DNA of 62,498 bases, counting the filler, from Asterionella formosa (lineage: Eukaryota): assembly GCA_002256025.1 (NCBI GenBank). It is 9 parts of 9 records of this genome, joined end to end, with 100 filler letters (N's around TTAATTAATTAA, not from the genome) between each part and the next. Parts side by side here need not be neighbours in the genome. Positions count along the whole stretch, not along the records: positions 55,661 to 62,498 come from NKIB01012594.1; 8 more parts are not named here. One strand, given 5' to 3'. How positions within the stretch are numbered: position 1 is the first letter of the stretch; each line of letters begins with the position of its first letter. The notes beneath the pieces were generated by a model. The model ran no database searches. It worked only from the letters and a program-made list of their open reading frames with translations, and was not told the origin of the DNA. A program made the position numbers and the translations under genes. Shown here in pieces: positions 27,759-62,435 of the stretch.

Positions 27759-27858
27759 NNNNNNNNNNNNNNNNNNNNNNNNNNNNNNNNNNNNNNNNNN
27801 NNTTAATTAATTAANNNNNNNNNNNNNNNNNNNNNNNNNNNNNNNNNNNNNNNNNNNN
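27759..27858. other. Artificial scaffold spacer
   Basis: 44 N + TTAATTAATTAA + 44 N. Confidence 0.98.
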
Positions 27859-34721: not shown

Positions 34722-34821
34722 NNNNNNNNNNNNNNNNNNNNNNNNNNNNNNNNNNNNNNNNNNNNTTAATTAATTAANNNNNNNNNNNNNNNNNNNNNNN
34801 NNNNNNNNNNNNNNNNNNNNN
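34722..34821. other. Artificial scaffold spacer
   Basis: 44 N + TTAATTAATTAA + 44 N. Confidence 0.98.
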
Positions 34822-41191: not shown

Positions 41192-41669
41192 ATGAGCTAC
41201 AATCCAAGCCTCGAAGAACAGGCTGCGGCATCTGTTGTCGCTGCACTGAGTGGCAAACGAGCCAGAGATGGCGCAGATGCCGCTGGGGGGTTTAATGCCA
41301 ACAAGTTTGCTCGCGTTGCCCCAGCTTTGATGCAGTTCCTGCCTCAGTTGCCTGAGCCTGCGAATTTGGTTCAAATTTCACTCCCTGGTGATAATGTTTC
41401 AGAATCTATGGGTTCTGCTGACAACCAGTTGCCAGAGTTGCAGGCTGCTCCTTACTATTACTACAAAGATTTTTCTCAAGACATGGATCCCGATCCCCTT
41501 ACTCCCCTGACTCCTCCGGGACGAGTGCCCAACTTCCCGGCCAAGATGCATGCCATCCTTTCTCGTCCTGACCTTGCCGACGTTATTGCTTGGATGCCTC
41601 ACGGAAGATCTTGGCGAGTGCTCAAGCCTCGTGAATTCGAGGTGAGAGTCTTGCCCACCTTCTTTGAGC
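41192..41669 (+). CDS. Heat shock transcription factor (HSF DNA-binding domain), 3' partial
   Basis: NFPAKMHAILSRPDLADVIAWMPHGRSWRVLKPREFEVRVLPTFF is the first half of an HSF DBD. Confidence 0.92.
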
Positions 41670-41769
41670 NNNNNNNNNNNNNNNNNNNNNNNNNNNNNNN
41701 NNNNNNNNNNNNNTTAATTAATTAANNNNNNNNNNNNNNNNNNNNNNNNNNNNNNNNNNNNNNNNNNNN
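41670..41769. other. Artificial scaffold spacer
   Basis: 44 N + TTAATTAATTAA + 44 N. Confidence 0.98.
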
Positions 41770-42242
41770 GGAGTCAGTCTCAGCACTTGTGTCTTCTCAT
41801 TGCTTGATTCTTCGAAAGATTTGTTTGGTGTATCTCACCTCAGCAGGGCATGTTGGGTCCCCACCAGTTGGCTGGTTTCTTAACTCTGTGAAGCTGTGTA
41901 TTTTTTGGCTAAGTGAAGGTCCTATCCATTCTTTGTCTGAGAAATTCTTGTTGTGCTGTGAAGCAGCAACTTCCCATTCATGGGACCCAAATAGCAGGTG
42001 AGTAGAAATGGAGTCCAACAATTTGTGTTATAATAGACACAGTGCACATGATATAATAATTTTTTATTATCATTGCGCGCCCATTTAGCGCTCTAAAGAT
42101 CTTTCATGTCGCTGTACATATTTATGTCTCAAGAAAGATCGATTTGTTTGCAGCGGCAGCTTGAAAAAATAGTTGAAGCCATTATACAAAAGTAAGCAAG
42201 GTCTTGAAAGCTCTTTTTTCTCGCCTACCATTTCGATTTTTG

Positions 42243-43247
42243 ATGACTATGATGATGATAATTCCATTTGCGGCCTTTGTCTTTTTATTTCTTCCAAATA
42301 CGAGTTGTGTCGCCTCTGCGCCCTTCCGCAGGTCTCGTCCCTTTGCCCTGCTGCAGCTTGTTCCACGAGGAGGCGGTGACGACCAGCATGCCATGACCAA
42401 GTTCGGTCGTATCTCTGACGACGAGTATATCTTGACACCTACCCAAATAGATGCTTTTCATACGACCGGTTGTGTCACTATTTCCAATGTCTTGACCGAA
42501 GACGAAGTGGCAGAAATACAAGTCATTTTTGACAAATTCATGAGCGGCGAAATTCCAGTCCCTGGCAAGGATTTTTGTGACATGTCCAAACCATTTGGAA
42601 TACCAAGAGAAGACTGGTCCATTATAAATTGCATGCTGCCAACGACCTACTATCCCGAGTGGGTTGGGAATATTTACGAAAGAGTTACCGCCAGTATAGT
42701 CCAACAACTGTTTCCTAATGAGCCCATGGTCAAGGATTATGATCAATTATTGAACAAACTACCAAACAAATCTGATGCCATTTTTGCTTGGCATCAAGAT
42801 ATGGGGTACTGGCCGAGCAGCGCTGTGTTGAATCTTACGACCACATCCACTGCCACATTTTCATTGGCCATTGATGATTCTGATCAAGAAAATGGATGTT
42901 TGAGGTATGTGAGAAACAGTGGTTTTGACAAGACTTTGAGACCGCATGTCCCTCTAGTGGGGGAGTCGAGGGACGATGGTCATGCTCTGACCATTAATGT
43001 TCACGAGGATGAAGAGGTCCAGTATGCGCCCGCCCTACGAGGATCAATCACCATCCATGATGAGTATGTCGTTCATGGAAGTTCTGGAAATACTAGTCCA
43101 CGACAACGACGCACATATGTTCTGGCTTATCGAGCCAAGGACATTGTAGATGCTGAACGAAGGATTGGATTTTCACATTCTCATAATGACAATACCAATT
43201 GGGATACATTTGATACTAAAACTGATGGCAATCAGAGTAGTGTTTGA
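42243..43247 (+). CDS. Phytanoyl-CoA dioxygenase (PhyH) family Fe(II)/2OG oxygenase with N-terminal signal/targeting peptide
   Basis: LTPTQIDAFHTTG, WHQD (HxD), AIDDSDQENGCL, VHGSSGN..RR; hydrophobic N-terminus. Confidence 0.88.
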   Translation: MTMMMIIPFAAFVFLFLPNTSCVASAPFRRSRPFALLQLVPRGGGDDQHAMTKFGRISDDEYILTPTQIDAFHTTGCVTISNVLTEDEVAEIQVIFDKFMSGEIPVPGKDFCDMSKPFGIPREDWSIINCMLPTTYYPEWVGNIYERVTASIVQQLFPNEPMVKDYDQLLNKLPNKSDAIFAWHQDMGYWPSSAVLNLTTTSTATFSLAIDDSDQENGCLRYVRNSGFDKTLRPHVPLVGESRDDGHALTINVHEDEEVQYAPALRGSITIHDEYVVHGSSGNTSPRQRRTYVLAYRAKDIVDAERRIGFSHSHNDNTNWDTFDTKTDGNQSSV

Positions 43248-44003
43248 TGGATATGTATCATGGAGCACTATCGTCATTCTATTTATATACTGAATATATA
43301 ATTGAAAAGTTTGGTTTTCATAAAGCAAATTCAAAATTGGATTTATTTCTAGAACTTGCTTCATCACTTGCAGAAATATCCATCTCTACTATAGCTGAGC
43401 ATCATTTGCAGTTGTTACAAAAATTAAGACTCAAAACCCAAGCTGTAATATATTTTTCGCTACATGTAGACTTATCTACAAGAACATGCTCATCACTGTC
43501 TATGGTAACCCTAGATTTTGACAAAGATATTCAAGTGATGGCAGAAGTAGCTCATGATTGTCACACAATATAGCACGGAGACAGGCATTGTTACTTGGTG
43601 GTAGCTTTTCTCGTTCATAAATCGATGCTGTAATAGGAATGCGATTGCAGTTATGTGATGGAAGTATCATCCCAGGATCGGCTCGATTATATGCCGCATG
43701 CTACTGGTAGTTTGTTACATAAACCCTAACCTTCGCATATTTTGAGAGGCAGTCCACTCGTGGTCGTCGTCATCGCGACCATCCAAGAAGGTTTTTTCTC
43801 TGTACTGGCTACCGCTACTACAGGGCTGATTAATTAATAGAGAATGATCACATTTGGTATAATGATTGCCTATTAGTTAATCGAAAACATCTGATCTGCA
43901 GCAGCCGATTAAATCACTTGATTGATTGCATCCATGGAGAGTCATGGTCGAACAAATTCTGATCCGCCATGATTCAAGCTACAATCACAAAAGGAAAACA
44001 ACA

Positions 44004-45070
44004 ATGAAGAGGAAAGTAATGGTCCTTTCGTATTCCTGCCAAGGCCATTGGCTCTTGATGATCTTGTGGATATTCACGTTTATGTTGGACGTGACGTTCA
44101 GTTTCACGGTTCTACCACCACCCATCTTTCATGCACATTCAAGAAGGGCCAAGAGTCACGTTAGTACTACGTGTCTGGCGGTGCTACTAGCTCCTGGAGT
44201 CGAAGTATTTGACGGAAGCACAATTGTTGATCCAATTGTAGTTTCAGGAGTCTTTTGGACCAGTCTCAAAGCAAAGTTATTTTCCATTTTTATTGGACAA
44301 GTTTTAGCGACTGCTGTATTCGGAATCCTAGCCTCGTTGGCGGCCTCGCAATTGCCCAAATTGGGTCAAATTGTGGCGCGAAATGTCTTTGGGGAGGACG
44401 AGACGAAGAAGAAACGAGTCACTCCTCCACGTTTAGAGGTTTCCTCTGCCAGCAATAATCGAATGTACGTTCCTGGTTTGTTTTGAAAACTCTACTAGAA
44501 GAGTATACAAATTGATGTCATCTTCATGTGCTCAACGTCTATTTTTTTACTACAGAAACTCGCAACTTGACCCTGACTTTGGAAAGCTAGTCTTGTGCAT
44601 TGTCATTGATGTGATTGGAACATCGTCTGAATTGATTCCCTTTGTTGGTGAACTTACCGATATAGCTTGGGCACCCCTAGCTGCCATTGCATTGCGATCT
44701 CTCTATGGAAGTAATATTGTATTTGTACTTGAATTTGTAGAAGAGATATTACCATTTACTGATATCCTGCCATTGGCAACATTATGGTACGTGCCACGGG
44801 TTCCTTTTCTTGCTTTTTGTTATCATCTGCTGTAAAACACCAATTCATTTATCATCAATAATGTGTTTCTACTTTCTCTTTTAACAATGTTTCATCATTA
44901 TCTGTCGATTATATAGTTGGGTGGTTGACACGTTCTATAGTGATTCAGATCTTGCCAAGGCCCTTGGTCTTGGACTGTTCTCGACAAAGGCTGTAGTAAC
45001 AATGTCAGACCCGCAGGTCATTGATGTTGAATCGGTGGACCAATCACCTCATTTATTAGACAAGAAGTAA
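44004..45070 (+). CDS. Hypothetical membrane protein, probably plastid-targeted; exons 44004-44464, 44556-44786, 44917-45070
   Basis: Signal peptide ending TFS-F; two phase-2 GT-AG introns keep the frame; C-terminal block DVIGTSSELIPFVGELTDIAWAP...EEILPFTDILPLATLCW. Confidence 0.75.
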
Positions 45071-45464
45071 AAAAACAAATCACTTTGTGTATGTAAATGA
45101 CGACTGGAGACATTATGTTTTAGACCAAAGAAAGTAATACACTTCTACCTCTACAAGTTTAGCATCAATAGCATAGTGTTGGCTATACCGATTGGATTAT
45201 ACGGCTCAATCGATCGAACCTACATGCCTCTTATAGAAGTCTAGAGAAAAATGATCATTTTAGGTCTCCATCTCGCTCTATGTTTTGTTTCAAATTTTGG
45301 GGGCTGTATGTATGTTGATATCTTACTAATAAGGGAGAATGAGGGATGATCAGGGTTCCATTCGCTTTTGATGAGTCACTTAGAAATTGAGCAAGCACAA
45401 CATATCCATTTTACACCTTGTAGGCAAAACTAAATATAAAAATAGTAAAATATAAATATAAAAT

Positions 45465-48279
45465 TCAATTCTCGGATGGCCCCTTGGGACGCAGTCTCAC
45501 AACCTTTGTTGGGTCGTCAATCTTGTCAATAAATGAAACTTCCGATGAATCATCGTCATCGGCTTTATCCAGTGCACTATTCCGCATACCGGAAATCAAA
45601 GAGATTGTTTCTGTGGATCCTTTTGGCTTTGGTGCCAGTCCCAGACGCTCCGTAAGGGAAAAGGTTGATCCACCCAACACAAAGACTGTAAAAACAATAC
45701 ATGCCGACGTCATGGCCTTGAGCTCTGGTTTTAACCGTGAACCTTCGCCAGTTACTGTATCGTACATTGGAATCGTCTCGACCAATGCAAAGGACATGGC
45801 ACCTCGAAGACCTGCAAACCACAAGACGACTTGCATTTTTCTATCAATAATTACACCAGTACTGCCCGGGATGCCTCGTGTGTTCCGTGATGACCTCCAG
45901 TTGGCTCGTAATTGTTGAACAGTCGTGACCCAATTGGCCAAGAGGGAAAGCAGCGGAATCATTATAGCACGACTGAGGCAGCATGCAAAGACAGAGAGGA
46001 ACATGTGCCAGAAGGACCAATGGTACCGGTAGGAAAACAAAAACACTCCCAAATATGCAAAAATGGATGTCTCCATAACTGTGGCTAGAATTTCAGTAAC
46101 AAATCCCACATGCGCCTTGGCTTCGGCGGAGAGATGACCTTTGCCAAAAATTGGACGCTTGGCCCTTACGCGGGGGTTGCTGTCACCAGGATCTTGTTGC
46201 TCGGTCACGTCGTCTTCGGGATGGTCATGTGGCCCAATGACATTAATGTCCATAACAAAGCCAGTGGCAACAACCGAGACAATTCCTGACCATCCGATTC
46301 CATCACAAATGTAGTAAGGAATGAATGCCCAACAAAAGAACATGAGCACTTCCACCAACGCAGTTTGCATGCCGTGCATGGCCCAGTAAAAGAAGGTACA
46401 GGCAATGCCCGAACCAATTCCGACAAATAGGGATCCAAATGCTATTACAGTAAAATGAATTGCTGCATTAATGACTGCTTCGGAGTCAATCACCAACGAA
46501 TCGTCCAAAAAATGCACCAGAGTCTGAAAGAGCACAATCGCCACACCATCGTTAAGTAATGACTCTCCAAAAATAATGACATAAATTGTGTCGGTATCCG
46601 TCATTCCCATATTGCTAAGAACGCTCAAGACAGCGATTGGATCAATGGATGAAATCAGGGCTCCAAAGGCCAACGACTCCACGTACGGAATAGTTTCACA
46701 AAACCGACCGAGCCACAATGTCCCTTTGTGAACAATCGTGGCCGTAATCAACGTGGCAAGCAGTGTTCCAGCGACGGCATAAATTATGATGGGTACAACA
46801 TGTCGATTGAACGACTTTTTATCAATACTCAACGCAGCTTCAAAGACAATAGGTGGAACCATAATGCGAAGGAACCATGCACCATCAAACGAGATATCGT
46901 AGCCAGGAAGGAACGACATGGCGGCACCACAGAGGACTGAAAGAAGGAATATGTGATGTAAGCGCAATGATTTAGTGTGAAAGCAAACAACAGTGAAAGA
47001 ACACCCAAAAGAACTCACCTCCGACCAAAATACACCCAGCAGCCTCCGGCAACCAGCGTATTTTAAAGTGCCGAATCATCGACTTGACCATACCGCAAAA
47101 GGCAATAACAAAAACAATCAAGAATAGCTTCTTATCAGAAACAGTTTCTTCTTCCTTTTGATCACAATTCTCATGAAAGACGTTCAGAATACTAGCACAG
47201 CACGTTCTTGCTTCGACAGATGTTGGATCATTGAGTACAGCCGAAACAACAGCAGTTGTATCTTGGACAGCAGTGGCCGAGGCAACCGCATCAACTGCAG
47301 CTTCATTCAATGTTGCATTGGTATGGTCGGCAGCTGTACGAATGGCCGACTGGATCGTATCTTCATTTTGAATCATCAATGTTTCTGTTATCATTTTATC
47401 TGACAGGTGTTCATTTGATGTAGGAAGTGTGAGTGATTGCTTGGGCTTGTCGGGTTTCGAGACCTCGACCTCGACCGTCGCCTCCGCCTTTTCTGCTTCC
47501 TCTTTATCAATAATGATTTCTTCTTGAATGCGACGAATAGTTTCCGTGTGCAAAATAGTATCCAGTCCTTCTTCAACTTGAAAGTGCGCATCGTTCCATT
47601 CCGCCAGAATTTGTTCATCGGCATAAAACTCATCGTCTTGACTCCAACTTTTGACAATTCCCGACCACCATCTAAATGTTCGATAGACCAATATTTTCAA
47701 TTTTGTATTCGTGTTTGGTTGATTTTGAAATAACTTTCTTCGTCGCTCCTGACCATCACTTGCAGCAGCGGCTGCTGCCTTTGCCTCCTTTTTGGCATTC
47801 GCTGCAATTTCTTTTTGTTTACTTTTTTCAATAATTTCTTGAGTACTATCCGAATTGCATGTCTTATCAAAAGCCTTTTTCAAGCCATTACATTCATCTT
47901 TGGCGTCAGTTGCGTTAATAACGAATGCAATAACACTTTCTCTACATTCCAGTACATCCGCTGCCTTCATACTGGCAGGTACCATGACATCGAATTTATC
48001 ATTTGCAACAACAACAGGAAATGGCAAATCATGCTCTTTTGATTTGACAATTACTTCTTGTACATCTTTTTTGGTTCGACTCACAGAAACATGTCTATCT
48101 TCGTGATCAGGTATCACAGTATCCAGCGTCAACCTGGTCCTGTCCATTTTGGATATAAATGCCGGTACAAACCCAAAGAGTAGTACCATTGCCGATATAA
48201 TTGTCAGTACCCATCGATTCCGGATCACCCAACATAACTTTTTTTGTGGTAGTTCGTCTGTGACCTCCTGTGTGTCCAT
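45465..48279 (-). CDS. Na+/H+ exchanger (CPA1, NHE8/NHX-like) with long N-terminal extension; exons 48279-47019, 46936-45465
   Basis: WLPEA, VPPIVFEAA, FGALISSIDPIAVL, FGESLLNDGVAIV, WFAGLRGAMSFAL motifs; 82-bp GT-AG intron at 46937-47018. Confidence 0.93.
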
Positions 48280-48615
48280 GATCACTTCCAAAGGAAGCAA
48301 GCTGGCCAATGGCTGTTCTTCCCTAAATTGGAATGGTGGAGTCATGAGGAACTTGCTGGTCACCTTGGACGTATTGTGTTTGCTTTGTGTACGTCTCTCT
48401 CTTTCTATCATTCGAAAAAGACAGGTATGTATGCAGTTTTGTGTTTCGCCTTGAGAGAAATGGCGCTACCACAAGTTCCGTTTTACTGCGACGGAATTCA
48501 CAGAACTGGGCGGTGGAAGCAAACTACAAAGTAGAATACGACGCGAACGAATGGAGAAAAGCTCTTTGCCTTGGATCTTGAAATGATTGCTACAAGTAGC
48601 CTTGATGATAGACCA

Positions 48616-48715
48616 NNNNNNNNNNNNNNNNNNNNNNNNNNNNNNNNNNNNNNNNNNNNTTAATTAATTAANNNNNNNNNNNNNNNNNNNNNNNNNNNNN
48701 NNNNNNNNNNNNNNN
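48616..48715. other. Artificial scaffold spacer
   Basis: 44 N + TTAATTAATTAA + 44 N. Confidence 0.98.
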
Positions 48716-50911
48716 TATAGGGTTAGGGTTATATCAAATATATCGGAATTCAATAATGAGAGAACTCGACTAACACCCATTCTATACTTTGATGTCAGTT
48801 CAGGAAATGAGTTGTACATAAGGATTAATTAATAAGCTCATATATTCAACAAATACTACTATTTCTAGTTAGATACTTCACTTTGAATTCAAAAAGAGTC
48901 GAATTAGAAGACAACAAACATGGCAATGTATTCAAGGGTTCCTGTGGTTCCTTTGATCAAAGACTACAATGTATTGACTATCAAGACTAAAACATTCAGA
49001 GTTGCTTTAACCGGTGGAAGGTTTGAATCGTTTGATCAAGATATGATCGATGGAAGCTCGGTGGAAGCATTGTTAATTGGAGTGAGTCAATTTCGTGACA
49101 TGGCTAACACATGTGCCTTTAGCCCTGCAGATACCTTTTCCTACTTTAAAAGGTGTTTGACCGACATTGCCTTATCGGATTGGTTGAATGTGGAAGTACA
49201 CCCAGAAGATCAATCTTACGATAGTTTCGATGAAGCGATGGTTTTATGGTTAGACGATCGTTTACCAAATGAGAGTTTTCAACGTCAACGACAATGGATG
49301 CTACGTTATTTATCTAAACCCTTTTCTATGTTGGTAATGGATTTCGGAGCTCGTATTAAAATTCTAAACAGGCTACTTCAACTAATGCCTCATCCAGAAG
49401 ATCAAAACGAATTGTCAAAAGAAGATATGCGGATTATCATTATCCGTTCTATGCCCGATGAGTGGCAACAAGAGTTTGAATTAAATCATGCAAAGACTTC
49501 AGACCAATCGATTCGCTCGGTTCTCGCTTACTTCGAGAGTCAACAATCGTTTAAGGATCGAAACAAGCATCTTCCCAAGAACAGTTTTCAAACAATCACA
49601 CAGAACCGTCTTCGCATTGCTGAAGGCAATCGTGTGATGCATCAAGAAAACGAGCGTGTCGGACGTCAATTCTATAAGGATAATTTTACTCCAAGTGGTC
49701 GTGGAAGAGCGCGTGCTATTGTCAATGCAGCCGGACGCGCATGGGATCGTCAGGCAACTGTTCGTCATCAAGCTCTACAAGCCAGTCGTACATACCATGA
49801 TTATCGTGGTCCTTGCCCGGTACATCCTGAAGGTGTGCATACTTGGGGCAATTGTTTCCAAAATCCTCGTACTCAAGGTGGTCGAGCAGGTCGTATGGCT
49901 GGTCGTCATAATGGATATGGCCGTTCCAGTTTCGGTAGACGAGGACATTTTGGTGGTCGTGGAGGCGGTGTACACAGCAATCCTACGGAAAGCTATCATA
50001 CTGACACTGCTAACCCTGTGCCTGTTCCACATGCTCGTATGTTAAATGCATGGGGTCATAATACTCATCCATCCGGTTGGGGTACCGTGCCACGTGCCGA
50101 TCCTACCGAGAATACATCTGCCCAGGAAATTTCAGTGGTCACGAACCCTCCTGCTGGTCAGATAGTGACTTTTGTCCCTTCTACACAACAGCAGATTGCT
50201 GATCGCCATTACAGAGGTATGTGCGATAATAGCGATGCTATTTATAATGACTCGTTGAGTATATCTCACGTTAGTCATCACCTGAATAATATTGTTTATT
50301 TACTGGTTGAATACACTATGGATACCGCTGTTAATGTAACGCGGGACATATATAAATGTATTGATGGACATGATGTTCCACATACATATCAGGGACCAAT
50401 TCCGGTTTCCTGTTTTACCCTTTTAAGGATATATTAACATCAATTGATTTGATTCCGATGTCCCTTTTAGCGCCAAGATTGGTGGATAATATACCGATAC
50501 ATAAAATACTACGAGTATTATTCGATAGTGGAGGATCATTATCCTTAATACATGAACGGGTTATGCCTCAAGGTATTTCTTTGTCTGACGAGACTTCCCA
50601 ATTAATACATACCATAGCTGGTACTTATTCATCTCATGCCAGTGTCATGCTATATGACCTGATTTTACCAGAATTTAATCGATCCGCTCATATTTTACAA
50701 CAAAAGTGTCAAGTCTTTAATGGTCTATGCACATTTGATGTTATTTTTGGACGTGATTTCCTCCGTCAAGTTGGTTTAACCATTGATTTCGTAAATAACA
50801 CCATGTCCTGTATGGATATGATCGTTCCTATGCATCCTCTCACATTCTTTGATGATAGAGAACGTTTACGAGATGTATTATTATATTTCGATGCACCTAT
50901 GATTGTGGAAT
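48716..50911 (+). mobile_element. Second copy of the same Ty3/gypsy family: partial 5' LTR (48716-48880), gag, protease; truncated at ~50911
   Basis: LTR matches 3301-3465; 50411-50911 is near-identical to 1-502; gag ORF 48920-50437. Confidence 0.95.
48920..50437 (+). CDS. Gypsy gag
   Basis: 505-aa ORF directly after the LTR; capsid-like SMPDEWQQEF; C-x2-H-x4-H-x4-C knuckle (CPVHPEGVHTWGNC); RG-rich nucleocapsid region. Confidence 0.85.
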   Translation: MAMYSRVPVVPLIKDYNVLTIKTKTFRVALTGGRFESFDQDMIDGSSVEALLIGVSQFRDMANTCAFSPADTFSYFKRCLTDIALSDWLNVEVHPEDQSYDSFDEAMVLWLDDRLPNESFQRQRQWMLRYLSKPFSMLVMDFGARIKILNRLLQLMPHPEDQNELSKEDMRIIIIRSMPDEWQQEFELNHAKTSDQSIRSVLAYFESQQSFKDRNKHLPKNSFQTITQNRLRIAEGNRVMHQENERVGRQFYKDNFTPSGRGRARAIVNAAGRAWDRQATVRHQALQASRTYHDYRGPCPVHPEGVHTWGNCFQNPRTQGGRAGRMAGRHNGYGRSSFGRRGHFGGRGGGVHSNPTESYHTDTANPVPVPHARMLNAWGHNTHPSGWGTVPRADPTENTSAQEISVVTNPPAGQIVTFVPSTQQQIADRHYRGMCDNSDAIYNDSLSISHVSHHLNNIVYLLVEYTMDTAVNVTRDIYKCIDGHDVPHTYQGPIPVSCFTLLRIY

Positions 50912-51909
50912 TACATTGACACAACGACACACAATTCCATTGTATCCTCTTGCTTCACTTACCACAAATCAATGCAACTGATGCATAAGTCTGTAATAGT
51001 AACTTGGGTAAGCCAAATTATTGAATAAGTAAGTTTCGGGTATCCAATGTTGTCGAATAAAACTTACCGGTTCATTTTTTTCAGCTTAACTTTGAGAGAA
51101 GGTCAACTTTTTGTCAGTTTTGTTCCAACAGAAGTGAATAGGTCCAACAAGCGACAAGAGCACTTACGCAATTTGGTTTGGTTTTGTTTTACATTGGTGC
51201 TCCCCAACAAGCGAAACGAGCTGTTGAATCAACTGAGAAAACAGGAAATGTGCGTTTAGTTAACAATTTGTTGTTGTGCTGCCTGCCTCCCAACGATTGT
51301 CATCCAAGTACCACATTGATGGCTTCATTACCTTAATCATTCTCCATCCTTCGAAGGCGCAATGTGTCGAAGCCACAATGTTTTTCGTTATGTATTGCGT
51401 AAACTTTCTTTTCTTGTCATGTGCTTAACTACAACATATCTTTTCAAGAAGCAGCAGGCATTGTTTGTTAACATGACAGAACGATTTCAAAAATATATAT
51501 GCCATGAATATAGTAATAAAATTTGTAAATATTTATATATATATTAAGTGTTATACATTTATAAAATTCAAAGGCGCTCTTGATATGGAACATCTGATAT
51601 GGTTGAGATGATCATACTCGCATATACATAATTCGAAAATACTCAATGCACTATATGTCCATTGTTTTCCATGACTACGTGTACCGGTATTGTTTCTGAA
51701 AATTGTTTGCATTGATATTTTCTACGTCCGTTGAAACTAATTATTTAGACCGTTCAAATGCCGCAAGGGTTTTGGTAGCAAATTGTTTAAGCCCCTTTTT
51801 TGGTTGGGAGCTCTTCATGTGTACCGGTACATCATAAACTATGACAATAACAATATATCATATATATATATACAGAGTACCAGTAGCAGGTAGTAAGTGA
51901 TATACTGGG

Positions 51910-55560: not shown

Positions 55561-55660
55561 NNNNNNNNNNNNNNNNNNNNNNNNNNNNNNNNNNNNNNNN
55601 NNNNTTAATTAATTAANNNNNNNNNNNNNNNNNNNNNNNNNNNNNNNNNNNNNNNNNNNN
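55561..55660. other. Artificial scaffold spacer
   Basis: 44 N + TTAATTAATTAA + 44 N. Confidence 0.98.
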
Positions 55661-55974
55661 TAGGTCCCTACACAGATTTACACGTGGGCAACGCTAACAA
55701 TGTATACCACCGGTACTAGTAAACCGGTACAAACGGCTGCATGTGGCTCGTTTAGTATTGTTCTGAATGTGCAAGATCGCTAGTAAGTAAGAAGCATGAA
55801 AGAATTATAAATGACAGCAGTACTCCGAGTAGGTGGTTCCTGTACTGTTCACACGTAAACATAACATGTGCATTATTACTTACTAGTTGCAAAACTGGTT
55901 GCGTTTCGTTACTTCGTGACATAACAGCGACGGATTCCAGAGTGCAGTTTTCAAAAACACCAGACCGAAGCAAA

Positions 55975-58900
55975 ATGGCACCATCCTTTAGGTCCATTAC
56001 TTCGGCGGTTGCTTCTACTCCTCCCCGTGAAGCAGCGCCGTCTGACGAATCCCCAGCCCCTGCACTGTTGCGAGAGTGGAAGGAACCACAACAACATGAA
56101 TTGCAGTCTCCACTTCCTGTCGCGCCGGCAGTCGTGTTGCCAGTTCCTTGCAACCATGACGATGACGATGGCAAACCTGCCGCCGTTTACCCCATTGCCA
56201 CCTTTGTGACCAATTTGGTAAGGAACAGCATTGATCACATTTATGCCGGTATTGCGGTTTCAATTGATGAAACGCCCATCACCTCGGTTCGATCTGAAGC
56301 GGCCATGGAAACCATTCGGCAGGAGCTGCGACGAGATACGCGATCTGAATCGGACTTGTTTTTGCCCAACGACGACGAATATGTTCTCATCGATGGAGAT
56401 TTAGTGGCTATTCCAGCGCCGCCGCCTAATTCCACTGAGCAGGAAGATGTGGAATTTCAGCAACAACAGCATTCGACAAAAAACAGAATGCGACGATCGA
56501 TGAGAGGGTTGAGAAAGTGGATGAAGAAGAGGCAGGGAAAGAAGAACGATTTGCGGAACCAACCCGCAGAACCACCTGTAAAAAATCAATCTTCTCGTAA
56601 AATAGAGAAAAGGAAGCTCTCTATTCGGCGATCCAAGGTCAATGTCCACGAGAACACACAGATTCCTCCTCGTGCAAGATCGCCGCCACCAGGTCCGACA
56701 ACAACTTCGTCGGTCACCAGTGTAAACATCATTGGAGCCGTGGCGGCATCGTTCATGGGTAACAGTCCTCTACAGAACGTGGCCTCGGCTTTGGCATACA
56801 TTGAATCAGATGAAAAGAGTAATGGAAAAGTTGACAAGGTGGAAGAGATGCATCTTGAGTCTATGCTACAGCTGGCGAGGTTGGAAGTGGAACAAGACAA
56901 TGGCCTGGAGGACTGTATTGGATCATTGCCACCCGCCAAAACTCCAATCGCCAAGCACTCGAATCTTCCCTGTCCACTATCAAAAGCTACAACTGATGAC
57001 TTCTTCGTAATCAATGATACATTAAAGGTTATCATGATGGGGGACTTGTGTAACGAAAAGTCGCAATTGGCCCGCGCAATCGGAGGCAAGAAGCCGAAGC
57101 GACCAAGGTGCTCACTTGGTGTCGACGTACACACATGGAAGCCAAAAGATAATTTGACCTTTACTATTTGGGATGTCAGCAGTGTGCATGCTGGTGCCCA
57201 TCCATCGACTCAGGGCCTCTTTTTCAGTGCCAAATCGCTTTATATTCTTGTTTGGGATCTAGGGGTCTCAAATCGAATGACTTTTACCAAGCGAAAGGAC
57301 ACGGAAGACGATGATGATGACGACGACGACGAGAATGACAACGAGTTTCTCTGTGAGGAAAACCAGCGACAAGCGGACCGAGCACTGCACCATGACATTC
57401 AAGACCACGTGCTCTCATGGTTGGACCGTATCATTCCCTCTGGAAGCGCCATCTTGCCAGTCGCATCTGTGGCGTCAGGGATGGAAAACTCGGAAGTGCA
57501 GCGGCGGTGTGGCATGTTGCAAAACCTATTGGTGAATCACCCGGCGATTATTGGGGACCAGGCGCCAAATTTAATTTTTGGGAAGTTTAATCCCATCCTT
57601 CTGGTTAACTTGTTAACCGGAGAAGGATTTCCAGAATTGCAAGAAACAGTCTTGGCTATTGGGCGAGAGGGAGTATTTTCGCATGTTGGGAAGGAAGTCT
57701 CTAAGAGTACCATGCAAACACTTGAGGTGATCCGACGACTAAAACAAGATCGTAAAGTCATTCTGTTAGATCATTTATTGTCAGAAATGAATGAACCTAT
57801 GATAACGATGGAGGAAGTCACGGATGCCCTTCAATTTCTTTCCAATATTGGAGAGATTCTATATTTCGGCAATTCCGCAGATGACATTTTATCTCGTTAC
57901 GTTATTTTGTCTCGGAAATGGCTAGTTTCGGCGCTCTCTTGTATCTTGCGCCCTGACTTGCAACGAGAACTGGCAGAAACTCGACGTTTCATGAACCTAC
58001 AGTGTGTCTATAGTGGCGAAGCTTTTGTCGAATCTGATACAGTTCAGACTCTCCTAAAAGGAACCAACTCGAGTTGCCCTGTCTTGTCTGCAAAGGATTC
58101 TGCAATGTTGTGGCAATCCATGGTATTCATGAAAGAAGCAGCGGATCAAACTGCACAGCTTTCAGAAGCATCGAATACAATGTATGACTTTTTGGAACGG
58201 CTGCTAGTGCATTTTGGTATCCTTTTGCCGTTGAAGGTGGCAGCTGAACCGACATACTTTGTTCCTTCCTTATTGGATCAACGAGAACCGAGCGATGTAT
58301 GGAGGTACAAGACAAGCGATGCTTGGATGACCACGCTGTGTCATTCATGGTTATTGCAAGACGGAATCCCAACAGCCGTTATGGAGCATGTAACGACAAA
58401 CCTACTCCAAGATCTTTACGAATTCTCGACTACCTTTCATGGTCAACTAGCACGACCCTTGTTTCATGCAAAAACATTACCGATTGGATCAAACGTTGCA
58501 ATGAAAGAGTTTTTGAAAGACCATAATCAAGAACCAATTGGTCGCATCAAGATCAATCAAGTCATGTGCTGGGAATCATCTGTACTCATCAAAATCGGAT
58601 CCGTAATTGCCGACGAGGAGCATAATGAGTTTCGAGAATCCCCTTGTGAAGTTTATGTGGCCGTGGTGGATGACCAGTCAAAACATTGTGTTGACATCAA
58701 AGGTATGAGAAATGGCATGAAGCGACTGATTGTATGTGGGAAAGGACAAGTTGGTCGTCACGGACATAAACTCTGGAAAGGTGGATATGGGCTGGTGTTG
58801 GATTCTATCAAGGCATCATTGGCGGACTCCAATGGTTTTGACCGGCAGGTAGTCTGTCCCGAATGTCTCGCCCACTTGCATCCAAGCTGTGCCTCGGCTT

Positions 58901-59883
58901 GGAGCTGGGAGTATGTCAAATCATCTGCTTATTCGGGTGATTCAGCCATACGATGTGCCAAGGGGCATTCCGTGGATACCAACTTATTATGTGGTCATGG
59001 AATATGCCCTTCTATGGTCAAACCTCCCCCACCGTCCCTCTCACCTCGTGTTAGCAAGAAAGTCAAGTGCTTACTTAATAGTGTTGTTCTTGTCGGTCTT
59101 TGGGACTCCCAAGAAAAGAGGATCAAGAATGTTGGCTCCGGATTTGTTGCGGACCAATCGCTTGGTCTTGTTGTCACGGCTAGACATATTTTGTTTGATT
59201 TGGATGGTCCCAAAAGTGGGATTCCTTACTTTGGATTAAAACATGGAAAAGCAATAATTGGTGTCATTCCAGATGGTAGTGAAACTGCTGTGTTTCGATA
59301 CTTTGCCGAAATTGTGAGTGAAAATGTTCAGAATGTCGATGCATGTGTATTACGAATCACAGCTCGCATGGAGCAGGATATGATTGGCGATGGTGAAGGA
59401 TGTGCATCTCAGTCCGAGCTTCCAGTCTCTTGCCTCGCTGAATTGCCCGAGCTCTTTATGACAAGCAAATTTGAGTTGGAGGAATCGGTGCGCATTGTGG
59501 GGTTCAATCAAGGTGGTGAAGATGTGTTGGAGAAAGGCAAGCATGTAAATCTCTCGGTTGACTTTGCCAAAGGTTATATTTGCAAAATCTTTAAAGTCCC
59601 TGTGCGAGCTGATGATGAGAATAGCGACTCCTCCTCCTCCTCGTCATCAATTTCAACAAAGACCTTTTCTCCTCTGGAAGAGATTGTTGTAGATTGCAAA
59701 ACCATTAGTGGACACAGTGGTGGACCATGCGTCAATGGAGAAGGTAAGGTTATTGGAATTCTTAGCAGAGCCGATCGAAACGACAGGCAACGATGTTATT
59801 TGGTCCCTGGGAGTCAATTAAAGAAATTGGTTCGCAATGTCAAGAAAATCTATGATTCCGGTGGCCGAAGCAAGAATGTTTGA
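55975..59883 (+). CDS. Roco-like protein: disordered N-terminus, degenerate Roc, COR, Cys/His cluster, trypsin-like serine protease
   Basis: Roc: KVIMMG..KS, SLGVDVHTW, TIWD, HPSTQGLFFSAKSLYILVWDL. COR: LQFLSNIGEILYF, VILSRKWLV, YFVPSLL, CPEC..CAKGH. Protease: GSGF, VVTARH, DACVL, GHSGGP. Single intronless ORF. Confidence 0.88.
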   Translation: MAPSFRSITSAVASTPPREAAPSDESPAPALLREWKEPQQHELQSPLPVAPAVVLPVPCNHDDDDGKPAAVYPIATFVTNLVRNSIDHIYAGIAVSIDETPITSVRSEAAMETIRQELRRDTRSESDLFLPNDDEYVLIDGDLVAIPAPPPNSTEQEDVEFQQQQHSTKNRMRRSMRGLRKWMKKRQGKKNDLRNQPAEPPVKNQSSRKIEKRKLSIRRSKVNVHENTQIPPRARSPPPGPTTTSSVTSVNIIGAVAASFMGNSPLQNVASALAYIESDEKSNGKVDKVEEMHLESMLQLARLEVEQDNGLEDCIGSLPPAKTPIAKHSNLPCPLSKATTDDFFVINDTLKVIMMGDLCNEKSQLARAIGGKKPKRPRCSLGVDVHTWKPKDNLTFTIWDVSSVHAGAHPSTQGLFFSAKSLYILVWDLGVSNRMTFTKRKDTEDDDDDDDDENDNEFLCEENQRQADRALHHDIQDHVLSWLDRIIPSGSAILPVASVASGMENSEVQRRCGMLQNLLVNHPAIIGDQAPNLIFGKFNPILLVNLLTGEGFPELQETVLAIGREGVFSHVGKEVSKSTMQTLEVIRRLKQDRKVILLDHLLSEMNEPMITMEEVTDALQFLSNIGEILYFGNSADDILSRYVILSRKWLVSALSCILRPDLQRELAETRRFMNLQCVYSGEAFVESDTVQTLLKGTNSSCPVLSAKDSAMLWQSMVFMKEAADQTAQLSEASNTMYDFLERLLVHFGILLPLKVAAEPTYFVPSLLDQREPSDVWRYKTSDAWMTTLCHSWLLQDGIPTAVMEHVTTNLLQDLYEFSTTFHGQLARPLFHAKTLPIGSNVAMKEFLKDHNQEPIGRIKINQVMCWESSVLIKIGSVIADEEHNEFRESPCEVYVAVVDDQSKHCVDIKGMRNGMKRLIVCGKGQVGRHGHKLWKGGYGLVLDSIKASLADSNGFDRQVVCPECLAHLHPSCASAWSWEYVKSSAYSGDSAIRCAKGHSVDTNLLCGHGICPSMVKPPPPSLSPRVSKKVKCLLNSVVLVGLWDSQEKRIKNVGSGFVADQSLGLVVTARHILFDLDGPKSGIPYFGLKHGKAIIGVIPDGSETAVFRYFAEIVSENVQNVDACVLRITARMEQDMIGDGEGCASQSELPVSCLAELPELFMTSKFELEESVRIVGFNQGGEDVLEKGKHVNLSVDFAKGYICKIFKVPVRADDENSDSSSSSSSISTKTFSPLEEIVVDCKTISGHSGGPCVNGEGKVIGILSRADRNDRQRCYLVPGSQLKKLVRNVKKIYDSGGRSKNV

Positions 59884-61289
59884 TTTTAGAATGAAGGAAG
59901 ATGAATATTGAGGGTTGTCAAGAAGTTGTTTATGCGACATACATAATGTTAAATGAAACAAGTTTCTAGAAATCAATTTTCTATCTTCCCATAGAGGAAA
60001 AGGATCTGTGGGATCCTTGTTTACATTGTGTGTAGGCCGGATAGTTCGTAGGAGGCTTGACATTCTTCCTAAAATGGCTTAGTATCGTGCTGTATACTCA
60101 TCATATCTTTTCGTATATTCATAGGAAGAAGTCCTCCCTATGAGTTGATGGTGAGTCTACTGGTACTCAATTCAACTCCCACTGCCCCTCGTTTTTGTTG
60201 GGAGCCAGATATTTTATGGCAAAATGGTTCCGTTCGCCCGTAGCACTTTATCTTCACTCTGAATATCTAGGTCCGATAGCAGTGATTTTCGATCATCCAG
60301 TGTGAACAGCCAAATATGCATTGCATGAGACAATTGATCCATTGTAAACCCCAATGTACTCAAAGTTGCTTGCAAACATTCCAGACATGATTTGCCAACA
60401 CAAAACGTCAGGTTGTTCACCCGGTTATTGGTGGGGAAAGATTTGTGTATAAAACGCTTTTAGGGTCATAAAAAAGGAGAATAGGACTTGATAGTCTACC
60501 TAGTNNNNNNNNNNNNNNNNNNNNNNNNNNNNNNNNNNNNNNNNNNNNNNNNNNNNNNNNNNNNNNNNNNNNNNNNNNNNNNNNNNNNNNNNNNNNNNNN
60601 NNNNNNNNNNNNNNNNNNNNNNNNNNNNNNNNNNNNNNNNNNNNNNNNNNNNNNNNNNNNNNNNNNNNNNNNNNNNNNNNNNNNNNNNNNNNNNNNNNNN
60701 NNNNNNNNNNNNNNNNNNNNNNNNNNNNNNNNNNNNNNNNNNNNNNNNNNNNNNNNNNNNNNNNNNNNNNNNNNNNNNNNNNNNNNNNNNNNNNNNNNNN
60801 NNNNNNNNNNNNNNNNNNNNNNNNNNNNNNNNNNNNNNNNNNNNNNNNNNNNNNNNNNNNNNNNNNNNNNNNNNNNNNNNNNNNNNNNNNNNNNNNNNNN
60901 NNNNNNNNNNNNNNNNNNNNNNNNNNNNNNNNNNNNNNNNNNNNNNNNNNNNNNNNNNNNNNNNNNNNNNNNNNNNNNNNNNNNNNNNNNNNNNNNNNNN
61001 NNNNNNNNNNNNNNNNNNNNNNNNNNNNNNNNNNNNNNNNNNNNNNNNNNNNNNNNNNNNNNNNNNNNNNNNNNNNNNNNNNNNNNNNNNNNNNNNNNNN
61101 NNNNNNNNNNNNNNNNNNNNNNNNNNNNNNNNNNNNNNNNNNNNNNNNNNNNNNNNNNNNNNNNNNNNNNNNNNNNNNNNNNNNNNNNNNNNNNNNNNNN
61201 NNNNNNNNNNNNNNNNNNNNNNNNNNNNNNNNNNNNNNNNNNNNNNNNNNNNNNNNNNNNNNNNNNNNNNNNNNNNNNNNNNNNNNNNA

Positions 61290-62435
61290 TCCTTGGTAGG
61301 CTGACCCAAATAACCGTTTATAGTCATCTCTGTTCCTTGGAGATCTCGTTGTTGGCGCAGAATGGTGTGATAAATCGTTGATGGCATGGCCTTCCTCATT
61401 TGCACCATTTCGAAATTCTTTATCCAAACAATGAATCTTTGACGATTTACTAATGTTATAAATGTGATTCAAGGGAACGCCTGCCATTTCATATGCCATG
61501 CTGTCAGTGGGTGAATTGCCAAAGGCACAAAATAGTAATCCAGTGGCAGAACGACCGGCACCACCAAAGACCAATACCACTTGCCGAATCAATGAGTCGG
61601 CCTTGTATTGATAAATGTCTTGTGTGACTAATTCTGAAAGTAGGACAGTATAGACGCTCCCCGTGTGGCCCATCATGGGACCAGGGGGAAGTTTGAATGT
61701 ATGTTGTTGTAGCCCTGCCAATAATCGACGAGTGGCTTGTGCCATGTCAATGTTCCTAGCCGTCAGATAGAGGACACGAGTATTTTCCGTGGCGACTTGC
61801 TGAAAGAACTGACAAATTCCCAAATGCACGTATTCAAAATTTTCATTAATGACGGTATGCCAAACCCCTCGAGCACTCGATTTTGTAATCGTGCCGTCAA
61901 TGTCAACGATCACAATTCTGTAATGAGATTTCCAAAGAAATAAGTAAGCACTTGCCGTTCCCATGATAGCGCCTTCAGCTGTGAGCAATTCATATTTCAA
62001 CTCGTTCCGTTCGTTGTGCAATAGTTCCATCAACGTTGCCAATTGTTCCATGGAAGGCTTTTCTGACATGCCTTTTCGAAATTTGCATGTCCCACCAACC
62101 TTCGTTACAATCAGCTCCACTCCCTCCCATGGCACATCATTCACCATGATACGACATGATTTCCCAACGTGGTGGGACGGAAATTTGACACGGAAATCAC
62201 CCGTGGCCACGGCTCCGCCGTTGTCTTGTTGAACCACAATGACATCCAATGCAACGCCCAATTGTACGGAACCAGCTCCTATCGAACAGCAAAGAAGGCT
62301 CGCTGCGAAGGCATCGTTTTCATTGTTATTAGTATCATTAATACTGAAGGAGCTGTTGTTGTTGTTAATGGATACTTCTAGTATTCCATTCATGTTTGGT
62401 ATGGTCGACTCGATCAGCAAATTTGTGTCAGTCAA
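61290..62435 (-). CDS. Lipin/PAH-family phosphatidate phosphatase (NLIP-like + LNS2 HAD); start uncertain, 3' end in N gap
   Basis: ALDVIVVQQDNG...DFRVKF (NLIP-like), IVIVDIDGTITKS (DxDxT), LYLTAR, LPPGP, AFGNSPTDSMAY. Confidence 0.88.

Follow-up and report, generated by a model that had tools for sequence, protein, structure and literature searches.

A Roc-COR protein of the diatom Asterionella formosa with degenerate GTPase motifs and an HtrA-like protease domain

The freshwater diatom Asterionella formosa expresses a protein in which the Roc-COR fold is kept, the nucleotide motifs are degraded, and COR, a Cys2-Cys-His module, and the His-Asp-Ser triad of a C-terminal protease are strongly conserved. 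By descent and predicted fold, the protein is a Roco member and not a canonical GTPase. Sequence comparison places it in an old, diatom-wide clade without leucine-rich repeats (LRRs), which is a paralog of an LRR-Roc-COR-protease clade. We consider it reasonably likely that the protein is a pseudo-GTPase Roco scaffold that drives a protease. The gene was analyzed within a stretch of 62,498 nt (nine joined genome parts; here, the window), and its features, in window positions, are as follows.

55906..59989, + strand: mRNA by RNA contig cover (contigs of four runs), with a short 5' leader, the CDS, and a 3' UTR of ~106 nt
55975..59883, + strand: single-exon CDS, 1302 aa plus stop (ORF; first ATG at 55975, end of stop at 59883)
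55975..57006, + strand: N-terminal region of low sequence conservation, residues 1-344 (Pfam scan, conservation profile, motif counts)
56512..56544, + strand: basic patch RKWMKKRQGKK, residues 180-190 (protein sequence)
57007..57699, + strand: degenerate Roc G-domain, residues 345-575 (family profile; fold alignment to 4wnr)
57040..57063, + strand: P-loop GDLCNEKS, residues 356-363, with Glu361 replacing the second Gly and Lys362 and Ser363 kept (motif alignment)
57169..57183, + strand: G3 position WDVSS, residues 399-403, with the Gly of DxxG lost (motif alignment)
57466..57477, + strand: G4 position S498-V-A-S501, after strand beta5, with no [NT]KxD and no Asp (alignment and model)
57700..58275, + strand: COR-A, residues 576-767 (Pfam PF16095; VIA to 4wnr through model residue 425)
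58276..58824, + strand: main body of COR-B, residues 768-950 (model alignment to LRRK2 and LRRK1)
58831..59004, + strand: Cys2-Cys-His module, residues 953-1010, with putative ligands C961, C964, C994, and H998 (conservation, separate model)
59035..59856, + strand: HtrA/Deg-like serine protease, residues 1021-1294, with no PDZ after it (Pfam Trypsin_2, VIA)
59185-59187, + strand: triad His, H1071 in TARH (motif, conservation)
59338-59340, + strand: triad Asp, D1122 in DACVL (motif, conservation)
59716-59718, + strand: triad Ser, S1248 in GHSGGP (motif, conservation)

Domain architecture of the A. formosa protein

The Pfam Roc model has no match in the A. formosa protein. A family profile matches the Roc domains of MbRoco2, LRRK2, LRRK1, and CtRoco at E values of 1e-10 to 8e-7 (9.8e-11 for the Roc domain of 4wnr, from MbRoco2). 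The best Foldseek matches to the AF2 model (pLDDT, 87; pTM, 0.85) are LRRK1, LRRK2, CtRoco, and MbRoco2, followed by Deg/HtrA proteins, and the VIA alignment with the MbRoco2 RocCOR structure (4wnr) has a Z score of 26.5 and an rmsd of 3.2 over 302 residues, covering model residues 1-425. The canonical G1 (GxxxxGK[ST]), G3 (DxxG), and G4 ([NT]KxD) motifs are all absent; the strand before the G4 position corresponds to residues 153-159 of the AlphaFold model. The original prediction had described a Roc-COR protein with a Glu in the P-loop, a G3 lacking DxxG, and an unrecognizable G4, and each of these points agrees with the alignments. It had also proposed profile searches as a check on Roc and COR, and both domains were recovered in this way, with the predicted fold in agreement.

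COR follows Roc, as had been proposed: Pfam COR-A (PF16095) matches residues 586-767 with an E value of 9.6e-11 and a score of 42.2 bits (cut-off, 35.3). The VIA alignments extend further along the model with LRRK2 (8fo9_A; Z score, 25.2; model residues 5..672) and LRRK1 (8e05_A; Z score, 24.9; model residues 6..671). After the main body of COR-B comes the Cys-His cluster already noticed in the original reading, C961-P-E-C964 and C994-A-K-G-H998, of which each of the four residues is present in 219 of the 220 aligned proteins (the remaining row being a gap). Zinc binding is predicted from these four invariant residues. In a fold search of 48,161 chains with a separate model of the module (pLDDT, 82), the C-terminus of the CtRoco COR ranked first, with a weak structural match (3dpu_B 868-940, Z score of 4.9; 3dpt_B, Z score of 4.8; next-ranked match, Z score of 3.0). 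RING chains scored lower than the CtRoco COR (Z scores of 2.1-2.8), and the Pfam zf-RING_16 match (E value, 0.17) reached 12 bits, with the cut-off at 27.4. The module is probably, as judged from its model, a zinc-braced C-terminal end of COR and not a separate finger. A role of C-COR in dimerization is described in a passage of a review (PMC6337361).

Pfam Trypsin_2 matches residues 1054-1262 of the protease domain with a score that exceeds its cut-off (E value, 1.6e-12), and VIA aligns the domain with DegQ, DegP, DegS, Deg1, and HtrA1 (Z scores, 22-23; rmsd, 2.5-3.0; ~195 residues; 20-24% identity). The predicted complete triad is present, and it is kept in the orthologs, with H1071 found in 217, D1122 in 215, and S1248 in 213 of 220 aligned proteins; the rows that lack a triad residue or a Cys/His ligand are mostly gaps. 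No PDZ domain was found by Pfam, and the protein stops at residue 1302, 8 residues past the aligned protease domain. The AF2 model includes a Ser/Asp-rich, low-confidence loop at residues 1213-1225.

The Pfam scan detected no domain, LRR included, in residues 1-344, and no LRR family at an E value of ≤1 for the A. formosa protein (P0001), versus LRR_8 at an E value of ~1e-16 for P0105 and P0115 of the LRR clade in the same kind of scan. The earlier description of this region as low in complexity, free of LRRs, and endowed with a basic patch therefore stands. Several short motifs (PVAPA, YP[VI]ATF, DG[DE]L, A[YF][IVL]E, and K[VI]DK) are specific to the LRR-less clade, each occurring in 42-60 of its 87 N-termini, compared with 0-1 of the 95 LRR-clade N-termini. 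A K/R cluster exceeds the shuffled expectation (p≤0.05) in 79 of the 87 LRR-less N-termini, its composition being kept and its sequence not. The N-terminus is disordered yet carries conserved short motifs.

Two paralogous clades in diatoms

We found 226 homologs of the A. formosa protein. The motifs are column conserved in the 220 aligned proteins, and therefore they are not due to chance. In two trees, one of which was made with the motif columns excluded, the LRR clade and the LRR-less clade split at 100. GK[ST] is present in 100/100 rows of the LRR clade versus 4/98 of the LRR-less clade, in which an Asp or Glu precedes the Lys ([DE]K) in 85/98, the Lys itself is kept in 96/98 non-gap rows, and the next Ser/Thr is kept in 83/98 of these rows. 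The G3 motif reads W[DE]xxG in 101 of 102 LRR clade rows (FDFAG in the other) and [WF]DxxG in 67 of 100 LRR-less rows. The G4 Asp is found in 99/99 and 8/96 rows, respectively. The triad and putative zinc ligands are essentially invariant in both clades.

Mean pairwise identities in the LRR clade are 0.664 for Roc, 0.566 for COR-A, and 0.609 for COR-B, and those in the LRR-less clade are 0.504, 0.579, and 0.535, respectively. By this measure, the LRR-less clade is the only one of the two in which Roc ranks lowest in conservation; the relaxation of Roc is confined to the clade with lost motifs. The trees place P0096 and P0076, in which the P-loop still reads GVGKS, on early LRR-less branches, and the G3 Gly was lost separately in the subclade of the A. 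formosa protein and in the subclade with the Pseudo-nitzschia rows. As read from these sequences, the GTPase motifs of the LRR-less clade decayed stepwise while the rest stayed conserved.

At least eight named diatom taxa or assemblies have both paralogs, and in Mayamaea these lie on a single contig, with close locus tags. Odontella is represented in both clades, indicating that the duplication is old.

A proposed pseudo-GTPase scaffold and alternative readings

In the explanation that we favor, Roc would, judging from its motifs, no longer be a GTP/GDP switch but a pseudo-GTPase with a structural and regulatory part to play. COR, whose end is putatively zinc-braced, would keep an oligomer or a fixed arrangement of Roc, COR, and protease, and the protease would be the only catalytic output. 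Control would have shifted from GTP turnover to the N-terminal motifs and basic cluster, to a partner protein, or to both. Several observations count against a dead switch: Roc is still ~50% identical across the LRR-less clade, which suggests that it does something, and the replacement of the P-loop Gly is nearly always acidic and not random. Together with the retained Lys, Ser/Thr, and DxxG, this acidic preference could reflect an altered phosphate or nucleotide site that still functions, at least among relatives of the A. formosa protein.

Taken further, these features could mean that Roc still functions as a nucleotide switch, albeit with an atypical P-loop, and that the nucleotide cycle gates the protease, as it does the kinase output of LRRK2. 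The conserved Asp/Glu would then handle Mg2+ or phosphate, or alter nucleotide preference. The high confidence of the predicted Roc fold is in keeping with such a switch, as are some orthologs, P0031 with 38.0 bits and P0049 with 38.3 bits, that still score above the Pfam threshold for Roc. We nevertheless regard it as unlikely. Replacement of the equivalent Gly in Ras (Gly15) strongly lowers nucleotide affinity. In the A. formosa protein, the G3 Gly is missing as well, and so is the G4 Asp, which is the residue that reads the guanine base and one that is nearly lost in the LRR-less clade but universal in its sister clade. The relaxation of Roc in the LRR-less clade alone argues in the same direction.

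The coexistence of the two paralogs in these diatoms, their old duplication, their identical ligands and triad, and the proximity of their genes in Mayamaea are the grounds for a further, speculative proposal, to which we give a similarly low probability: the LRR-less protein may be an obligate partner of the LRR paralog in an asymmetric heterodimer formed via the COR ends. The LRR subunit would sense and cycle GTP, and the pseudo-GTPase subunit, with its disordered, motif-bearing N-terminus, would set localization or threshold; activation would follow when the two protease domains are brought together. If this is true, the two would form a sensor/helper pair made of Rocos, the first system of this family with proteolysis as its output.

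Less probable still is an executioner of immunity or programmed cell death, in which a trigger would cause di- or oligomerization and thereby switch the protease on, similar to STAND/NLR proteins with protease effectors. The combination of an NTPase-like module, an oligomerization domain, and a protease parallels bacterial conflict systems and Avs2-type trypsin effectors (passages of PMC7159879). The sister clade bears LRRs, and brown-algal LRR-ROCOs are proposed as immune receptors in passages of PMC11378527 and PMC3341825. However, Pfam revealed no sensor repeats, there is no sign of expansion or diversification (one copy within the window), and the core shows ~50-60% identity from one diatom to another and contains COR and protease blocks that hardly vary, unlike diversifying receptors. 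PADLOC aligned the protease with RT-Protease_XI models only over a short local stretch (E value, 4e-7; ~60 residues), and transcript contigs are present in many unrelated freshwater metatranscriptomes, which suggests ordinary expression. Of the original interpretation, the Roc-COR tandem, the degenerate G-domain, the lack of LRRs, and the kept triad survive, and the suggested part in diatom defense or programmed cell death is left without support. The conservation pattern fits better with a core regulatory or proteolytic-processing function than with a fast-evolving immune receptor.

Integrity and expression of the gene

The locus is an expressed, intron-less, polyadenylated single gene. RNA contigs of four runs, which are no proof of a single transcript molecule and do not rank expression level, span 55906-59989 without joints. 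Contigs start at 55906 (run X6) and 55961 (run X1), and a contig of run X1 terminates at 59989 in a poly(A) tail of 24 A residues. One contig (57943-59879) connects COR to the protease. Depth is 0 at 55661-55818 in all four runs and past 60085 in three of the four, and the reading frame is open upstream to 55942 (GTG). The stretch or a part of it was found in 20 of the 22 runs listed (19 recorded as RNA; 17 studies). The unbroken contig cover and the poly(A) tail indicate one gene and not two, so the single ORF of the original prediction is not divided by the RNA. Orthologs align over 98-99% of residues 340-1302. That the ORF is an artifact (Roc-COR and protease genes read through, or a decaying pseudogene) is thus highly improbable and was rejected: it has nothing in its favor but the Pfam Roc miss and the degenerate motifs, and it is contradicted by an open frame of 1302 codons, by RNA contigs across every domain junction, by the collinear architecture of >100 orthologs (several listed as complete MMETSP transcripts), and by the invariant triad and putative Cys/His zinc ligands.

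Comparison with known systems

The closest known architecture is that of the LRR-ROC-COR-peptidase ROCOs of SAR algae, represented here by the diatom LRR clade (for example, P0105, P0128, and P0140), which have the same collinear Roc, COR-A, COR-B, Cys2-Cys-His module, and HtrA-like protease and are ~40% identical to the A. formosa protein over the COR-protease part, with the same invariant triad and putative zinc ligands. In contrast to these proteins, the A. formosa protein has no LRRs, has Glu for the P-loop Gly, and has lost the Gly of G3 and the Asp of G4, and its clade has its own set of N-terminal motifs. ROCOs with a C-terminal peptidase are mentioned for SAR algae, including the brown-algal "group 3," in part of PMC11378527; the link to group 3 is drawn from that text. 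We found nothing in print on a degenerate, LRR-less Roc-COR-protease clade, and our literature search found no paper joining "pseudoGTPase" with "Roco."

The Roco proteins of C. tepidum and M. barkeri (Roco2), LRRK1, and LRRK2 share with the A. formosa protein the Roc-COR tandem fold and profile-level Roc similarity. In LRRK1 and LRRK2 the kinase is directly C-terminal of COR, as is the protease here. The A. formosa protein differs from all four in that its output domain is a serine protease and not a kinase, in its degenerate G motifs, in the putative zinc site at the COR end, and in the lack of LRR, ankyrin, and WD40 repeats. The HtrA/Deg (S1C) proteases DegP, DegQ, DegS, plant Deg1, and HtrA1 share the chymotrypsin fold and the triad, but the A. 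formosa protease has no PDZ domain, carries its regulatory module (Roc-COR) on the N-terminal side, and has the loop at 1213-1225. In pseudoGTPases such as the pG domains of p190RhoGAP and degenerate septins, the G-domain fold is likewise kept, G1, G3, and G4 are lost, and selection continues; membership in this class requires biochemical absence of nucleotide binding or hydrolysis, and the A. formosa protein is a candidate for it by motifs and fold.

Implications

ROCO searches that rely solely on the Pfam model of Roc, a procedure described in part of PMC11378527, would miss members of the A. formosa type, since the model has no match in this protein. The family also flags a conserved, expressed, uncharacterized cytosolic protease across diatoms. 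It comprises two natural versions of a Roc-COR-protease: in one, LRRs accompany a textbook GTPase, and in the other, the GTPase motifs have decayed. For LRRK2, there is still debate on how Roc-COR transfers a signal to the output domain. A protease output is easy to assay, and thus the pair could show what Roc-COR does without nucleotide cycling and whether an active Roco is under the control of a pseudo-GTPase one.

Domain composition of the Roco protein

The original prediction read the gene at window positions 55975 to 59883 (+) as a Roc-COR protein fused to a protease, with a degenerate GTPase and no leucine-rich repeats (LRRs). Each motif quoted in support of that description was located at its site in the 1302-residue product.

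Features of the window protein (residue numbers; + strand)
356-363: P-loop, GDLCNEKS (motif reading)
399-403: G3 position, WDVSS (motif reading)
498-501: G4 position, S498-V-A-S501, after the fifth strand, without [NT]KxD
586-767: COR-A (Pfam, E 9.6e-11; 42.2 bits, cut-off 35.3)
961-964 and 994-998: Cys-His cluster, CPEC and CAKGH
1054-1262: Trypsin_2 (Pfam, E 1.6e-12)
H1071, D1122, S1248: catalytic triad, in TARH, DACVL, and GHSGGP

A two-residue shift of the G4 position, suggested by a second HMMER alignment piece (score, -1.8), was overruled, since the register is set by the predicted beta5 strand and by the Asp that never varies in the LRR-bearing paralogs. The Pfam scan of the window protein returned no Roc, no LRR, and no match in residues 1 to 344. 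A single-sequence search of PDB sequences yielded only weak protease matches (HhoA/HtrA2; E, 0.13 to 0.5), and a family-profile search was therefore needed. The profile of 68 members matched the Roc domains of Methanosarcina barkeri Roco2 (E, 9.8e-11), LRRK2 (1.8e-10), LRRK1 (4.5e-10), and Chlorobium tepidum Roco (CtRoco; 7.9e-7), as well as the protease HtrA1 (1.6e-7). Several orthologs pass the Pfam Roc cut-off themselves (e.g., P0031, with 38.0 bits, and P0049, with 38.3 bits). For residues 340 to 1302, an AlphaFold2 model (pLDDT, 87; pTM, 0.85) retrieved LRRK1, LRRK2, CtRoco, and MbRoco2 first and Deg/HtrA proteases next in Foldseek. VIA-align placed the RocCOR of MbRoco2 on model residues 1 to 425 (Z, 26.5; rmsd, 3.2; 302 residues), LRRK2 and LRRK1 on residues 5 to 672 (Z, ~25), and DegQ, DegP, DegS, Deg1, and HtrA1 on residues 682 to 955 (Z, 22 to 23; rmsd, 2.5 to 3.0; ~195 residues; 20 to 24% identity). 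Roc is thus recovered by the family profile, the ortholog Pfam scores, and the predicted fold. Although the protease shares the HtrA/Deg fold, the window protein lacks a PDZ domain, and its chain stops 8 residues past the aligned domain.

Two low-confidence loops lie inside folded domains: an acidic poly-Asp insert in Roc (window 57298-57345; residues ~442-457) and a Ser/Asp-rich protease loop (window 59611-59652; residues ~1213-1226). Both appear in the family consensus as acidic or Ser-rich stretches.

Two diatom clades, with and without LRRs

Searching with residues 340 to 1302 identified 226 proteins, the best 120 of which split into two groups. The first (~104 proteins; 40 to 99% identity over 98 to 99% of the query) lacks LRRs, and its named entries include Seminavis, Nitzschia, Cylindrotheca, Pseudo-nitzschia, Mayamaea, Epithemia, and Odontella. 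Members of the second are ~40% identical over the COR-protease part and carry LRR families together with strong Roc/Ras matches. A second search, started from a member of the LRR group, revealed that this form is also a diatom gene, with named entries including Nitzschia inconspicua, Mayamaea, Cylindrotheca, Thalassiosira, Skeletonema, Pseudo-nitzschia, Epithemia, Odontella, and Chaetoceros. Both forms are listed for at least eight named taxa or assemblies. In Mayamaea pseudoterrestris, the LRR-less gene (MPSEU_000739300) and the LRR paralog (MPSEU_000740300), entries P0058 and P0140, have nearby locus tags on one 788,239-bp contig. The homolog P0006 and a fast-evolving LRR-less paralog (P0112) may also be neighbors, since for each of them the longest contig listed measures 42,225 bp.

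Two trees were rooted on the LRR clade, one built with FastTree from 121 sequences and the other with IQ-TREE (quick mode) from 52 chosen sequences, with the G1, G3, and G4 columns omitted. The two clades separate with a support of 100.

Stepwise loss of the guanine-nucleotide motifs

All 220 retrieved proteins were aligned and assigned to a clade by their identity to a reference of either clade, giving 113 LRR-clade and 107 LRR-less sequences. Mean pairwise identities were computed by domain from 1500 sampled pairs per clade.

Motif retention (sequences covering the site) and mean pairwise identity: LRR clade; LRR-less clade
G1 GK[ST]: 100/100; 4/98
G3 W[DE]xxG: 101/102 (exception, FDFAG); 67/100
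G4 Asp, five residues past LP[VI]: 99/99; 8/96
Roc identity: 0.664; 0.504
COR-A identity: 0.566; 0.579
COR-B identity: 0.609; 0.535
Cys-His module identity: 0.551; 0.605
Protease identity: 0.680; 0.607

The P-loop Gly is replaced by Asp or Glu in 85 of the 98 LRR-less sequences covering it. In the trees, early LRR-less branches keep this Gly, namely, P0096 (GVGKS, WDLEG, and ASFDD) and P0076 (GVGKS), and the crown has Asp or Glu in its place; P0049 and P0098, with Gly inside the crown, look like reversals. The G3 Gly was lost separately in two subclades, i.e., the 20-sequence subclade of the window protein and a subclade with Pseudo-nitzschia sequences. The guanine-nucleotide motifs were thus lost in steps.

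Where its motifs are intact, Roc is among the best-conserved domains; in the clade that lost them it ranks last, still at 50% identity. The P-loop Lys persists in 96/98 LRR-less sequences and the following Ser/Thr in 83/98, and the Gly replacement is almost always acidic; some selection still acts on the site. These features are points in favor of an altered but working nucleotide site, a reading that we consider unlikely.

Protease triad and a putative zinc-braced COR end

Orthologs keep the triad: among the 220 sequences, H1071 is present in 217, D1122 in 215, and S1248 in 213, and C961, C964, C994, and H998 are each present in 219, the misses being mostly gaps. A conserved Roc-COR-protease machine with an intact triad and Cys2-Cys-His site is evident from the alignment.

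Residues 948 to 1015 were folded alone (pLDDT, 82), and the resulting model was aligned to each of 48,161 representative chains, with no prefiltering by Foldseek. The best two matches, covering 57 of the 68 residues, were both to the C-terminal COR end of CtRoco (3dpu_B 868-940, Z 4.9; 3dpt_B 872-940, Z 4.8), followed by a chain with a Z of 3.0. These scores are low, as expected at 68 residues, and the module sits exactly where COR should end. Because of this top match and this position, we read the Cys-His cluster as a predicted zinc-braced C-terminal subdomain of COR; zinc binding and any role in dimerization are likewise predictions. An inserted finger is the less likely reading; RING chains scored lower (Z, 2.1 to 2.8) than the CtRoco COR end. 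An ESM Atlas search with residues 945 to 1030 gave no usable match. When two copies of a segment comprising COR-B and the Cys-His module (model residues 425 to 676) were submitted to complex prediction, the score was 0.00 and the partner's own fold was uncertain, a result that weighs neither toward dimerization nor away from it.

N-terminal motifs of the LRR-less clade

The N-terminus (residues 1 to 344) has no Pfam domain and low column conservation. Of 87 LRR-less N-termini with 150 or more residues, 79 contain a K/R cluster stronger than in shuffled versions of that region (P ≤ 0.05). Five short motifs recur in this set, i.e., P[PV][VI]AP (42/87), [YF]P[VIL]A[TS]F (56/87), DG[DE]L (60/87), A[YF][IVL]E (53/87), and K[VI]DK (60/87), and each occurs in 0 or 1 of 95 LRR-clade N-termini. 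To judge from sequence, a disordered region with docking or modification sites would look like this.

Scan of prokaryote genomes

No Roc-COR-protease protein was found in a pattern-based scan of 185,579 prokaryote species (one genome each), a kind of scan that distant forms would escape. It gave 81 pattern matches and one confirmed relative, a 523-residue ORF on a Gammaproteobacteria metagenome-assembled contig (L001). This ORF is related in the protease domain only (38% identity), lacks Roc-COR, and shares the GHSGGPC and CYLVP blocks with the diatom protease. A polyubiquitin-like ORF adjoins it.

L001:2245-3816 (+), protease-bearing ORF, 523 aa
L001:5134-6714 (-), ubiquitin-like ORF, 7 repeats

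The G+C content drops from ~63% to ~47% just before these ORFs, and the stretch looks either like a eukaryote-derived island, acquired by transfer, or like part of a chimeric contig.

Gene model and transcripts

The predicted frame is present and open: it extends from 55942, with the first ATG at 55975 and the stop ending at 59883, and the window holds one copy of the gene. The gene stretch was wholly or partly present in 20 of the 22 public runs listed, with 19 on record as RNA and 17 studies represented, and most of the runs containing it are freshwater, lake, or estuary metatranscriptomes. Contigs of four runs were placed on window 55661-60400. They span 55906 to 59989 without a joint, and therefore the gene has no intron; one contig terminates at 59989 in 24 A, indicating a poly(A) site ~106 nt past the stop. 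RNA depth was 0 in 4/4 runs at 55661-55818 and in 3/4 runs beyond 60085, so that the flanks serve as an internal silent control. RNA does not split the ORF into two genes; a single contig (57943-59879) reaches from COR-A to the protease end, and several collinear orthologs are listed as complete MMETSP transcripts. Contigs alone do not establish that the transcript is a single molecule; with the open frame and the collinearity of the orthologs added, a two-gene reading is very unlikely. The gene is expressed as one mRNA, and the chance that the ORF is an artifact is negligible.

A candidate splice donor at 59775, raised by a loose contig end in runs X2 and X7, was rejected: the loose letters match, in diverged form, the 30 bases that come next in the window, which assigns the contig to a relative. 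After 59775, the X2 and X7 contigs depart into related but different sequence, and RNA contigs of run X6 carry a 12-nt in-frame insertion after 59118. In these freshwater samples, the differences appear to be variants of this gene from strains or sister species.

Window surroundings

48920-50919 (+), a 505-aa ORF without a Pfam match, followed by an ORF with an RVP domain (50458-50916; E, 1.2e-5)
41192-48411 and 61289-62435, an HSF-type DNA-binding protein, a PhyH dioxygenase, a Na+/H+ exchanger, and, downstream, a lipin-type LNS2 protein (-)
6875-6974, 13838-13937, 20799-20898, 27759-27858, 34722-34821, 41670-41769, 48616-48715, and 55561-55660, paired 44-N runs every ~6.96 kb

The RVP-bearing ORF, ~5 kb upstream of the Roco gene in the window, is probably a retrotransposon remnant; the other genes are ordinary eukaryotic genes without an evident link to the Roco gene. 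One 44-N pair lies ~315 bp upstream of the start codon, and three longer N runs also occur; all look like traces of masking or scaffolding, not biological features.

Interpretation and relation to published work

The Roc-COR-peptidase architecture is known in outline: a 2024 study of brown-algal ROCOs describes a "Group 3" with a C-terminal peptidase domain (IPR009003) and at most four ROCOs in diatoms (PMC11378527). Its search used the Pfam Roc model, to which the window protein gives no match. Our literature search, with the supplementary tree of PMC11378527 outside the comparison, turned up nothing closer than this study and found no account of a degenerate Roc in ROCO-peptidase proteins or of the LRR-less pseudo-GTPase clade; it also found none of the coexistence of this clade with a canonical paralog, the zinc-braced COR end, or the N-terminal motifs.

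We favor, with some reserve, a joint reading in which Roc would have lost GTP cycling and would act instead as a scaffold or a surface for regulation, the COR domain and its zinc-braced end would fix an oligomeric or intramolecular arrangement, and the protease would be the output, controlled from the N-terminal motifs and/or by a partner. That the dead-Roc protein pairs with the canonical LRR paralog as a sensor/helper heterodimer is the boldest reading, and a doubtful one. The originally proposed role as an immune or cell-death executioner seems more doubtful still; it concerns role rather than mechanism and is compatible with the other readings. The only PADLOC hits, short local protease matches to RT-Protease_XI (E, 4e-7), are not enough to place the protein in a defense system.

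The original description of the window protein was accurate, and the finding is real. The gene is best filed under the SAR ROCO-peptidase proteins, in an LRR-less pseudo-GTPase branch. Its product is a conserved, uncharacterized diatom protease with a proposed function and a proposed mode of gating, and the pseudo-GTPase branch offers a clean natural experiment for Roc-COR signaling.
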